A DNA stretch of 55,412 nucleotides from a virus (Duplodnaviria > Caudoviricetes). The translations under genes were made by a program, and so were the position numbers. Below are positions 19,367 to 20,825 of the stretch, piece by piece; positions within the stretch are counted from its first letter, which is position 1; each line of letters begins with the position of its first letter. The notes below the pieces were generated by a model that was given only the letters and a program-made list of their open reading frames with translations, did no database searches and had not been told where the DNA came from. The DNA lies in the IMG/VR virus record IMGVR_UViG_3300030616_000028, positions 1 through 55,412 of that record. One strand, written 5' to 3'.

Positions 19367-19800
19367 GCAGGTCGAAGATCAAGAGGTCTGGTTCGCACAA
19401 GAAGAAGGTGCGCGGATACCGGCAGACCAGGAACGTCGACGCGTGGAACCGAGGGCAGTTACGCCGAACCATGCAGGAGCAGGCTCGCCGCCGTCGGTTG
19501 ACGAAATTGGATGGAGATACAGGTGAGGAGTACATCCTCGCACGACTCGCTCTCGCCGACAAGGAGCAGAGTGAGGAGTACAGGGCGGGGCTCGACGAGG
19601 CACTCGCTGACGTGCCCCAGGAGGCTGAGGAACAGGCGGAAGCCATCCGGGGATACCTCCAAGCCTGGGTCGACGAACGACGACTGGTGCCGATTCCATG
19701 CGGCCGTGGCGAGCGTCCGAGTTGCCGGGTCTATGAGGGGCGGGAGGAGAACCGGGTCGTCGTGATGCGCCAGGATGACCCCGACGCGGGGCCTCAGTGA
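19363..19800 (+). CDS. Hypothetical protein
   Basis: GGAGG RBS, ATGA overlap. Confidence 0.55.
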
Positions 19801-20768
19801 TCGTCGCACTCCCCGTTCGGGTACAGCCGCTCGCAGAAGTAGCGGACGGTGGCTTCCATCCCGTCTTCGAGGTCCGTGAGGGGAGACCACCCAAGGACTT
19901 CGCGAGCGCGAGAGATGTCCGGGCAACGCTTCCTCGGGTCATCCTGCGGGAGGGGATGCTCGACGACTTCGGAGGTCGTGCCGGTCAGCTCGATGACCAG
20001 GTCAACGAGATCACGGATGGTGCTCTCGCGCGGGTTACCGAGGTTGACCGGCCGGTGCGCGTCCTCTCCCTCGTACTCCATCAGCTCAATGAGTCCTCGC
20101 ACGAGGTCGTCGACGTAGCAGAAGGATCGCGTCTGGGAGCCGTCGCCGTAGATGGTGATCGGCTCGCCGCGGAGTGCCTGGACCGAGAAGTTGGAGACGA
20201 CCCGGCCGTCGTCGATGGCCATGCGCGGACCGTACGTGTTGAAGATACGCGCGATGCGGACCTCGACGCGGTTCTGCTGGCGGTAGTCCGTGAGCAGCGT
20301 CTCGGCGCACCGCTTCCCTTCGTCGTAGCAGGAGCGAGGGCCGACCGTGTTGACGTTCCCCCAATAGGCCTCGGGCTGCGGGTGCTCCGTCGGATCTCCG
20401 TAGACCTCCGACGTCGAGGCCTGAAGGATTCGAGCGCGTACCTGGCGAGCAAGCTCGAGCATGTTGTACACGCCGATCACGTTCGTCTGGATCGTCTTCA
20501 CGGGATTATACTGGTAGTGGACCGGGGAGGCGGGGCAGGCAAGGTTGTAGATCTGGTCAACGTCGATGATGAGCGGCTGGATGATGTCGTGCCGAATGAA
20601 CTCGAAGTGCGGGTCATCGAGGAGGTGCGCGATGTTCTCCCGACGCCCCGTGAACAGGTTGTCGACGCAGATGACCTCGGCCCCTCGTTCGAGCAACTGC
20701 TCGCAGAGATGGGAGCCAATGAAGCCCGCGCCGCCCGTGACCAGAATTCTCTTGCGCCCGTTTCCCAT
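19794..20768 (-). CDS. uxs: UDP-glucuronate decarboxylase (UDP-xylose synthase), extended SDR
   Basis: [70 protein letters not shown]; only minus-strand gene. Confidence 0.92.
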
Positions 20769-20796
20769 GTGAACCCTCCGTTTCCAATTGCGACCC

Positions 20797-20825
20797 ATCA
20801 TACCGCGCTCGATCCGAGAGAGCAA
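20797..20825 (-). promoter_or_regulatory. Sigma70-type promoter of uxs
   Basis: Minus strand TTGCTC-N17-TATGAT. Confidence 0.6.

Follow-up and report, generated by a model that had tools for sequence, protein, structure and literature searches.

The phage DNA analysed here (the window, 55,412 nucleotides in all) carries on its minus strand an ORF, at 19794-20768, that clearly encodes, as judged from its sequence, a genuine UDP-glucuronate decarboxylase (predicted UDP-xylose synthase, UXS). Enzymes of the UXS family convert UDP-glucuronate to UDP-xylose with the help of a tightly bound NAD+. The gene arrived, together with its own leader, as an insertion of about 1.04 kb in reverse orientation at a variable junction of the phage genome. 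Our leading reading, which we hold tentatively, is that it would supply a sugar donor to the phage's own TAGT glycosyltransferase.

The UXS gene and its expression signals

The UXS frame (324 amino acids; 19794..20768, minus strand; stop codon at 19794-19796) is unbroken, and its best start is ATG 20768. A start at TTG 20987, which gives the longest frame, was rejected: all upstream starts lack an RBS, and the alignment with human UXS1 opens at residue 3. The protein matched the Pfam families Epimerase (E 2.8e-53) and GDP_Man_Dehyd (E 3.1e-56), as expected for the extended SDR fold. Human UXS1 (PDB 4gll/2b69) aligned with residues 3-315 (E 1.5e-122, 412 bits), while the scores with sister SDR subfamilies were 154 bits for GalE, 102 for UAXS and about 90 for ArnA. 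The GxxGxxG NAD-binding motif (GGAGFIG, residues 12-18) was found, as well as STSEVYG (118-124) and YDEGK (148-152). In the alignment, human UXS1 shows the same residues as the phage protein at S-T-S-E (118-121), at Y148 and K152, and throughout a DDPxKR stretch; these conserved residues presumably play the roles assigned in the human enzyme to the catalytic Thr, Tyr and Lys and to the Glu and Arg of the decarboxylation. No NCBIfam model was matched above its curated cut-off, the best being TIGR01181 (157.7 against the 365.1 required). A preliminary description of this DNA had proposed an intact antisense UDP-xylose synthase gene. The unbroken frame and the retained catalytic motifs bear out that it is intact, and the gap between human UXS1 and the next SDR subfamily bears out its identity.

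The same description had placed an RBS and a TTGCTC-N17-TATGAT promoter ahead of the gene, and both are exactly in place. The RBS (GGAGGG; 20774..20779, minus strand) lies 5-6 nt ahead of ATG 20768. The candidate sigma-70-like promoter (20797..20825, minus strand) consists of TTGCTC (20825-20820), a 17-nt spacer and TATGAT (20802-20797). It is a prediction below the usual threshold: its hexamers match the consensus at 3/6 and 5/6 positions (8/12), and the standard scan (≥9/12, ≥4 per hexamer) did not return it. Standard scans gave site counts that were not above those of shuffles. With relaxed criteria (≥3/6, ≥5/6, spacer of 16-18), chosen post hoc so as to include the UXS site, 8 promoter-like sites were found in the whole window on both strands, including 3 on the minus strand. 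This density of about 0.07 per kb per strand corresponds to a (post hoc) expectation of about 0.005 sites within the 71-nt UXS leader. A search of 18500-22500 for terminator-like sites found none.

UXS had also been taken for the only minus-strand gene. It is indeed the sole minus-strand ORF with family support among the approximately 63 window ORFs scanned with Pfam, but other minus-strand candidates exist. Two of these, 16485-16784 and 10702-11244, gave no Pfam match, and the former had no counterpart in the loci of three relatives. As for the remaining minus-strand ORFs, those passing the GC3 filter seem to be antisense shadows of genes on the plus strand.

Insertion at a variable junction and origin of the gene

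The window represents about 57% of a tailed phage of about 97 kb (CheckV), complete relatives of which measure 94-102 kb. The stretch that is missing in relatives (19801..20839) comprises UXS and its 71-bp leader and lies between two conserved plus-strand phage genes. One of these (19363..19800; 145 aa, no Pfam family) is convergent with UXS and overlaps its 3' end by 7 nt; the other (20840..21931; 363 aa, with zinc-ribbon-like repeats) is divergent from it. The homologues of the flanking genes directly adjoin in two of three complete relatives (G062 and G061), and the third (G053) has at the equivalent junction two other, unrelated small ORFs. None of 36 terminase relatives, including 6 complete ones, has UXS, which is present in one record only among the 37 related records. 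No direct repeats flank the insertion, and a near-identity DNA search with 17000-24000 against GenBank phages gave no match.

We conclude that UXS is a real moron. One moron feature that it shows is its place between two genes that adjoin each other in related phages (G062, G061). A base composition unlike that of the neighbours is absent: GC is 0.63 (20001-21000), where the window as a whole spans 0.60-0.69, and GC3 is 0.80, other predicted genes ranging from 0.72 to 0.97. As for a promoter and terminator of its own, UXS has the promoter-like site mentioned above, under the scan threshold, no terminator, and a 3' end that overlaps its neighbour.

Viral contigs contained at least 392 stretches with UXS. 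These viral copies are at most 68% identical to the window protein and are less close to it than its nearest homologues, metagenome proteins of 75-77% identity, one of which is named from a Proteobacteria MAG. Those among the nearest homologues that have a source name bear the label UDP-glucuronate decarboxylase or SDR family oxidoreductase. A genome scan gave matches of 60-68% identity scattered over many phyla, so that no donor or host can be named, and a metagenome scan gave at most 69% identity among the matches listed. A tRNA search for host inference found none. A protein identical to the window UXS is recorded on a 191,388-bp contig.

The TAGT cassette and its linkage to UXS

The candidate user of UDP-xylose is a GT-A-like glycosyltransferase (38340..39221) that matches the TAGT model PF20691 end to end (E 2.7e-41, 142 bits against a cut-off of 27.5) and is the only Pfam-detectable glycosyltransferase among the approximately 63 window ORFs scanned. 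It closes a cassette of plus-strand genes that begins with a B12-binding/radical SAM-like protein (34523..35689; weak Pfam matches below cut-off; 68% identical to its homologue in the relative G057). A Radical SAM/SPASM protein of uncertain start follows (35791..36714; Radical_SAM 2.9e-11; SPASM 6.4e-4, just below cut-off; weak PDB matches, BtrN among them), and then an FkbM-family methyltransferase (36861..37529; domain at 36861-37301, 30.3 bits, above cut-off) and a ParB N-terminal-domain-like protein directly upstream of TAGT (37571..38338; 21.8 bits, below cut-off). The terminase large subunit (39218..40834, plus strand) opens the packaging and structural module. The preliminary description had thus rightly recognized an FkbM protein and a TAGT-like enzyme about 18 kb away from UXS (17.6 kb from start to start). 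At the sequence level, the PDB contained no relative of TAGT or of the B12/radical-SAM protein, and Rfam found nothing in the repeat region at 33.7-34.5 kb. TAGT homologues of 46-51% identity, from Aeromonas, Vibrio and Tenacibaculum phages, bear the RefSeq name beta-glucosyl-HMC-alpha-glucosyltransferase.

We examined the best 80 of at least 597 viral stretches with TAGT and found a ParB-like homologue directly upstream of it in 74. From its gene order, ParB-like/TAGT is a conserved module placed just before the terminase. A 279-aa Epimerase-family SDR adjoins the module in L101 and L131, and proteins of an approximately 140-aa cluster, the single scanned example of which is cytidylyltransferase-like, adjoin TAGT in 13/80 loci.

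The preliminary description had proposed to look for co-occurrence of uxs and TAGT in phages, and this was observed. Of 78 UXS-bearing viral records (49 + 29, from the best 80 of at least 392 stretches), five contained a TAGT above cut-off (4/49 and 1/29), in 3 lineages, as compared with 0/160 cellular or metagenome UXS loci, in the flanks of which none was found (0/80 bacterial-genome, 0/80 metagenome). In all five records, both genes share a strand, and UXS starts 23-580 bp past TAGT. The three lineages differ in GC (38-41%, 42% and 57%) and do not share DNA with one another. Neighbours of the pairs connected with DNA metabolism are a sliding-clamp-like protein (weak, below cut-off), a UDG-like protein (weak) and a PAPS-reductase-like protein, and one record has a GIY-YIG homing endonuclease between both genes. 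In the tree of UXS proteins, 3 changes are required to account for the copies next to TAGT, which suggests repeated recruitment. The addition made by this follow-up is a virus-specific pairing of TAGT and UXS genes that recurs in three lineages of phages; the supplementary gene-neighbourhood datasets of earlier work (10.1101/2023.12.21.572611, PMC13229309) may already include UXS-type 'epimerases'.

In the window, UXS and TAGT are not adjacent and lie on opposite strands. The window TAGT falls outside the branch (SH-aLRT 98) formed by the five UXS-adjacent TAGTs, that join being flagged as a possible long-branch artefact, and none of the 50 records with the TAGTs most similar to it has UXS. 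A strong TAGT match was found in two terminase relatives, G073 (complete) and G057 (fragment). Both are devoid of UXS, and such an absence from relatives carrying the cassette was named by the preliminary description itself as counting against its proposal. Its proposal that UXS is the donor source for TAGT thus stands in part: it gains from the adjacency in three other lineages and loses from the 17.6-kb distance, the opposite strand and the position of the window TAGT outside the UXS-linked clade. G057, the closest TAGT-bearing relative, contains instead a GalE-like enzyme (284 bits to PDB 2c20), the gene of which lies about 2 kb upstream of the B12/radical SAM cassette gene, with three other ORFs between. 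In the window phage's clade, a sugar-nucleotide SDR was found in TAGT-bearing members only (window UXS, G057 GalE-like) and in none of the 4 complete TAGT-less relatives. The picture that these sequences suggest is one of ParB-like/TAGT modules before the terminase acquiring differing enzymes that would make the donor: UXS, GalE-like, short SDR or cytidylyltransferase-like.

Interpretation and comparison with known systems

If UXS serves TAGT, it would be transcribed independently by host RNA polymerase. It would work on host pools because no phage UDP-glucose dehydrogenase was found, turning UDP-glucuronate, which would necessarily be host-derived, into UDP-xylose. The latter would be the sugar donor for the ParB-like/TAGT cassette before the terminase, the glycosylated target being most probably phage DNA, and the cassette's FkbM and radical-SAM proteins would go on to modify either the sugar or the base. 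A more specific proposal is that ParB-associated TAGTs put phage-UXS-derived xylose on DNA, with possible methylation by the FkbM and B12/radical-SAM proteins and with an acceptor formed by no known route, in what would be a new packaging-linked pentosyl hypermodification pathway. We consider this proposal unlikely; it would apply more clearly to the three TAGT-UXS operon lineages than to the window phage.

Thymidylate-synthase homologues (PF00303) were sought in the window and in G057, G067, G073, G091 and G092, and C5-methylases (PF00145) in the window and in the TAGT-bearing G057, G067 and G073; none was found, and both positive controls matched. A search for Tet_JBP (PF12851), the positive control of which never matched, gave no match in the window, i.e. 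in about 57% of the genome. Because of these three results, the putative acceptor and the putative DNA target are both unproven. Neither an hmC pathway nor an enzyme that would provide an acceptor base with a hydroxymethyl or hydroxy group was found. Of the features of a DNA-glycosylation pathway, the window has a DNA-type glycosyltransferase, and neither an adjacent sugar-nucleotide enzyme nor an acceptor-making enzyme was found in it.

The main rival to donor supply for TAGT is a manipulation of host sugar pools, which we regard as a real but rather doubtful possibility. As a stand-alone metabolic moron, UXS would drain host UDP-glucuronate and raise UDP-xylose, and so alter or stop a glucuronate-containing capsule, EPS or LPS, with the possible effect of blocking superinfection or facilitating release; in several organisms, UDP-glucose dehydrogenase is subject to feedback inhibition by UDP-xylose. 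Such a role is consistent with the reversed insertion of UXS and its leader at a variable junction between genes adjacent in relatives, with a host-type promoter-like site ahead of the gene, with the lack of a detectable phage UDP-glucose dehydrogenase, and with nearest homologues that are metagenome proteins rather than viral copies. Furthermore, the majority of viral UXS copies (73 of the 78 records) are without a TAGT above cut-off; in three such records that were inspected, UXS has other partners or none. UXS1 also figures among the transcribed viral AMGs in surveys (PMC11183165, accessible part). The composition of the gene, however, is not foreign, and inspected phage UXS genes usually lie near a phage glycosyltransferase or sugar-tailoring enzyme: besides the five TAGT records, the complete phage L004 has a GT4 enzyme beside UXS, and the complete phage L062 a DegT aminotransferase, the major capsid gene and a GT11/methyltransferase. 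Moreover, no target glycan can be named. The form of this explanation offered in the preliminary description, lysogenic conversion, is weakened: genes for an integrase or serine recombinase were found neither in the window nor in 4 complete relatives, which makes lysogenic conversion in the classical sense unlikely. UXS may still reshape host sugar pools in a non-lysogenic role.

It is improbable, in our estimation, that UXS serves another phage glycosyltransferase encoded in the approximately 43% of the genome outside the window, for example one that glycosylates virion proteins or acts on another glycan. The incompleteness of the record leaves room for such an enzyme, and the partners of UXS in L004 and L062 are of the kind that it calls for, but the absence of UXS from all 6 complete relatives indicates no conserved partner, and the window already has a TAGT, a family repeatedly linked to UXS elsewhere. 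We find it most improbable that UXS is a passenger captured recently and not selected for any role, or that it forms a product other than UDP-xylose, e.g. by releasing UDP-4-keto-pentose. Its presence in a single one of the related records and its scores below every NCBIfam cut-off would fit with this, yet the frame, RBS and catalytic motifs are intact, GC3 is within the range of the other genes, and the similarity to characterised UXS far exceeds that to ArnA or UAXS.

A phage-borne UXS is by itself an ordinary auxiliary metabolic gene. Viral AMGs and morons (UXS1 is listed in the accessible part of PMC11183165) are likewise single accessory genes with their own expression signals (for the window UXS, an RBS and a promoter-like site), situated between genes adjacent in relatives; in contrast with a typical moron, no terminator, compositional contrast or evidence of lysogeny was found for the window UXS. 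Human UXS1 (2B69/4GLL) and Sinorhizobium meliloti Uxs (cited in PMC6024577) belong to the same extended-SDR family and have the same length. Unlike them, the phage copy was inserted as a lone gene, with no UDP-glucose dehydrogenase alongside, and its activity is predicted from sequence.

The donor-supply reading has its closest parallel in phage DNA glycosyltransferases that were shown experimentally to need a neighbouring sugar-nucleotide 'epimerase' (bioRxiv 10.1101/2023.12.21.572611, accessible part). According to the same part of that preprint, subclass II 'GT + sugar epimerase' clusters likewise combine a DNA-type glycosyltransferase with an SDR supplying a donor that is possibly scarce in the host, and have ParB-like, terminase and clamp genes as neighbours too. 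They differ in that their genes are adjacent and accompanied by a C5-methyltransferase and 5mYOX, with hexose, HexNAc and hexuronate as products, whereas the window has a pentose-donor decarboxylase 17.6 kb off on the other strand, and 5mYOX/ThyS were not found in it. The words 'xylose' and 'pentose' are absent from the accessible text of the preprint. The T6-type TAGT (PF20691) adds a second glucose onto glucosyl-hmC (PMC13390438); the window TAGT differs from it by having a ParB-like partner before the terminase instead of belonging to a T-even hmC module, and no hmC pathway was found.

DNA modifications of this kind decide the sensitivity to restriction, CRISPR and type IV systems and also provide tools for enzymatic DNA labelling. 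The E. coli control genome matches the UDP-glucose/GDP-mannose dehydrogenase family; UDP-glucuronate is therefore probably made there, and TAGT-UXS, if the pair acts as its gene order suggests, would be a simple two-gene test system.

Precedents for pentoses on DNA, with the activated sugar coming from phage enzymes, are provided by RB69 and DLP3, the DNA of which contains arabinosyl-5-hydroxycytosine (PMC13326640), and by Shewanella phage Thanatos, with a deoxypentose on cytosine (PMC12838424). A Uxs/Uxe route was raised as a possibility in the RB69 paper of 2018 (PMC6024577). The routes of these phages proceed from ribulose-5-phosphate or pentose-1-phosphate (nucleotidyltransferases) with a thymidylate-synthase homologue and involve no UXS, whereas in the window phage a ThyS homologue was not found. 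If UXS-derived xylose is indeed transferred to phage DNA, it would be added to glucose, arabinose, HexNAc and hexuronate as a phage DNA sugar.

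A UDP-glucuronate decarboxylase gene on the minus strand

The minus-strand gene had been described as encoding a UDP-xylose synthase (UDP-glucuronate decarboxylase, UXS), and database comparisons bore this out. The ORF ends at 19794 and has its best start at ATG 20768, which follows GGAGG at a distance of 6 nt; residues 12-18 form the NAD-binding motif GGAGFIG. The protein matched the Pfam families Epimerase and GDP_Man_Dehyd (E 1e-53 to 1e-56); no NCBIfam model reached its cut-off. In a search of solved structures, the top four matches were each to human UDP-glucuronate decarboxylase 1 (412 bits over residues 3-315, E 1.5e-122), whereas other subfamilies scored lower (154 bits for GalE, the next best, 102 for UDP-apiose/xylose synthase and about 90 for ArnA). 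The S-T-S-E, Y-x-x-x-K and DDPxKR stretches, which have catalytic roles in UDP-glucuronate decarboxylase, were identical to those of the human enzyme in the alignment. Pending an assay, we regard the protein's identity as settled on sequence grounds.

The closest sequences other than itself in a set of 5.8 billion proteins shared 75-77% identity; those with names were UDP-glucuronate decarboxylases or SDR family oxidoreductases, one of them from a Proteobacteria MAG. Viral copies (at least 392 stretches) were farther off, at no more than 68%, and species-representative genomes from many phyla gave 60-68%. In a FastTree phylogeny of 220 rows, the window copy grouped with the top metagenome matches. 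An identical protein was recorded on a single 191,388-bp contig, about twice the size of complete relatives of this phage (94-102 kb) and to be compared with 55,412 bp for the IMG/VR record. Possible explanations for this contig are a concatemer, a different assembly and a form linked to the host.

The promoter-like site TTGCTC-N17-TATGAT reported upstream of UXS is indeed present, at 20825-20797 (minus strand), and a transcript from it would carry a leader of roughly 20 nt. It agrees with the consensus at 8/12 positions, which is below what a standard scan reports. Under looser criteria, set post hoc so as to include it, only 8 promoter-like sites were found in the window on both strands, and placement of a predicted site before UXS by chance appears unlikely (about 0.005 under these post hoc criteria). 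No terminator-like site was found near UXS, which at its 3' end runs 7 nt into the stop region of the convergent gene (19363-19800); the divergent gene on its other side begins at 20840.

UXS was found in none of the 36 terminase relatives, the window serving as positive control and being detected. In two of them (G061 and G062), the counterparts of 19363-19800 and 20840-21931 adjoin directly, and in a third (G053) the same junction is filled by two unrelated small same-strand ORFs of 146 and 76 aa. This gene order shows UXS and its 71-bp leader to be an insertion of about 1.04 kb at a variable site. The insert is not bordered by repeats, and its composition is not foreign to the window.

The phage and its glycosyltransferase module

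The window spans the entire IMG/VR virus record, which is linear, with an estimated completeness of 57% and a GC content of about 64%; its plus strand holds almost all genes. The terminase search matched 43 viral loci. The 36 that share 48-84% identity make up our comparison set, and 7 others, at 21-27%, were set aside. The set includes six complete genomes, four with terminal repeats, and the size of the six (94-102 kb) agrees with the completeness estimate. Searches of the window and of 4 complete relatives gave neither a tyrosine integrase nor a serine recombinase, the controls being positive.

About 63 ORFs of the window were scanned with Pfam, and three gene blocks emerged. The replication, recombination and lysis block comprises YqaJ, RecT, DnaB, an amidase, an SLT-like protein, DUF5131 and RuvC, to which an SSB and a methyltransferase-like protein with an NPPF motif were added from their translations only. 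The latter (221 aa, 18134-18799) carries the motif DIIATNPPF, of a kind usual in N6-adenine or N4-cytosine DNA methyltransferases; no Pfam or NCBIfam model matched the protein, which is conserved in G062, G053 and G061 at 53-60%. The DUF5131 protein (phage Gp37/Gp68, radical-SAM-like; 12655-13545; 51% in G062) is the third radical-SAM-type gene within the window's half genome. The second block is a cassette at 34.5-39.2 kb (B12/radical SAM-like, radical SAM/SPASM, FkbM and ParB_N-like proteins and the glycosyltransferase TAGT), and the third, for packaging and head, holds terminase, portal, Mu F-like, XkdF protease and capsid genes. Directly upstream of the cassette lies an ORF-free stretch of about 770 bp (33686-34456) with roughly 7-8 degenerate copies of a unit of about 102 bp. 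Several units (at least 4 aligned) bear a TTGAGA-N17-TACAGT-like motif followed by a GC-rich hairpin-like run, one copy, at 34208, being at the threshold of the promoter scan. The array gave no TRF call and no Rfam match.

The TAGT assignment at 38340-39221 was upheld by an end-to-end match to PF20691 (E 2.7e-41). This family is very common in viral contigs (at least 597 stretches). Of the best 80, 74 have a homologue of the ParB_N-like protein of the window directly upstream of TAGT; terminase genes of at least three families, then portal genes, lie downstream in these 80 loci. ParB-like/TAGT before terminase is thus, by gene order, a conserved module.

Donor-making enzymes beside such modules appear to be a recurring theme. 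In G057, the closest terminase relative (81-84%), the contig starts with a methyltransferase and a GalE-like SDR (284 bits to PDB 2c20); about 2 kb further, past three other ORFs, come a B12/radical SAM protein, a ParB-like protein, a radical SAM protein, TAGT and terminase. Two other loci carry a 279-aa Epimerase-family SDR by TAGT, overlapping its stop in L101 and separated from it by an unassigned 304-aa ORF in L131. In 13 of the best 80 loci, TAGT is followed by a protein of about 140 aa from one cluster, of which the one member scanned was cytidylyltransferase-like. In L088, the ParB-like gene and TAGT are separated by a gene for a radical SAM/SPASM protein that shares 52% identity with that of the window.

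Linkage of UXS with TAGT

The proposed partnership of the two genes stood in part: they are adjacent in five viral records, but UXS was found in 0/50 records holding the TAGTs closest to that of the window. Nor was UXS found in the terminase relatives with TAGT, namely G057, G073 and, by a weak match, G067. TAGT was over the cut-off in 4/49 and 1/29 UXS-bearing viral records (L003 and L075 excluded), with one further match weak and below it. In all five, UXS starts 23-580 bp past the TAGT gene on the same strand. These pairs (L012, 8791-10948; L013; L016; L023, 2735-4797; L061, 8091-10796) belong to three lineages of uncultured phages: L012, L013 and L016 share about 90% DNA identity, and L023 (57% GC) and L061 (42% GC) have no DNA in common with them. 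A GIY-YIG/NUMOD3 homing endonuclease fills the larger gap in L061. At 370-407 aa, the paired TAGT ORFs are extended at the N terminus by about 90-120 aa. Encoded nearby are a PAPS-reductase-like protein and proteins that match the sliding clamp and UDG families weakly, below the cut-off. No TAGT was found in the flanks of 80 bacterial-genome and 80 metagenome UXS loci.

In the UXS tree, the five TAGT-adjacent copies require three changes. In the TAGT tree, a branch (SH-aLRT 98, though marked as possibly a long-branch join) separates the five UXS-adjacent proteins from the window TAGT, which is weakly paired (86) with that of G057.

Complete phages without TAGT also carry UXS: beside a GT4 enzyme in L004, with DegT, GT11 and a capsid gene in L062, and near a transposase and a Dam methylase in L031. 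The cultured 115-kb Pseudomonas phage QdP_Psa3 (PV055685.1, 796-11761) has a UXS-like SDR (46% identical) clustered with genes annotated as thymidylate synthase, DNA helicase and UDP-glucose dehydrogenase, which looks like a candidate module for uronate- or pentose-based DNA modification. In the 42.6-kb circular 'phage' record of Aphanizomenon phage Yong-DA (ON073792.1), UXS neighbors a UDP-glucose 6-dehydrogenase, a GDP-mannose dehydrogenase, a glycosyltransferase and a polysaccharide export protein, and the region looks like a cellular polysaccharide cluster.

Use of the UXS product and comparison with known systems

As to the use of its product, we tentatively infer that UXS supplies a donor to the phage's own TAGT cassette. 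We rank this first because the TAGT-UXS pairing recurs and is virus-specific, because a sugar-nucleotide SDR occurs only in TAGT-bearing members of the phage clade, and because no glycosyltransferase other than TAGT was detected in the window. UXS may possibly act instead on host sugar pools, which we rank second and which fits the distance and opposite strands of UXS and TAGT, the hot-spot location of UXS, the TAGT tree and the fact that relatives with TAGT lack UXS. That it serves another glycosyltransferase, encoded in the part of the genome beyond the window, seems unlikely, and that it is a passenger gene or makes a different product is more improbable still. UDP-glucuronate must come from the host, since neither the window nor the TAGT-UXS records showed a phage UDP-glucose dehydrogenase.

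DNA may be the target of the TAGT module, as suggested by family membership, gene context and T6-type precedent (PMC13390438). No thymidylate-synthase homologue was found in the window, G057, G067, G073, G091 or G092, and no C5-methylase in the window, G057, G067 or G073, the controls being positive in both cases. Tet_JBP was over the cut-off in 0/50 TAGT records and absent from the window, with a model that had no positive control. The known routes to glycosylated pyrimidines, as far as covered in PMC13326640, PMC13229309 and 10.1101/2023.12.21.572611, all begin with such enzymes.

Our search of main article texts in one literature library found no account of DNA glycosylation fed by UXS, of TAGT and UXS as a pair, or of TAGT together with ParB; on UDP-xylose synthase and bacteriophages, the one relevant paper was that on RB69. 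UXS1 is already in print as a viral AMG (PMC11183165), and phage DNA glycosyltransferases active only with a neighboring 'epimerase' have been reported from experiment (10.1101/2023.12.21.572611).
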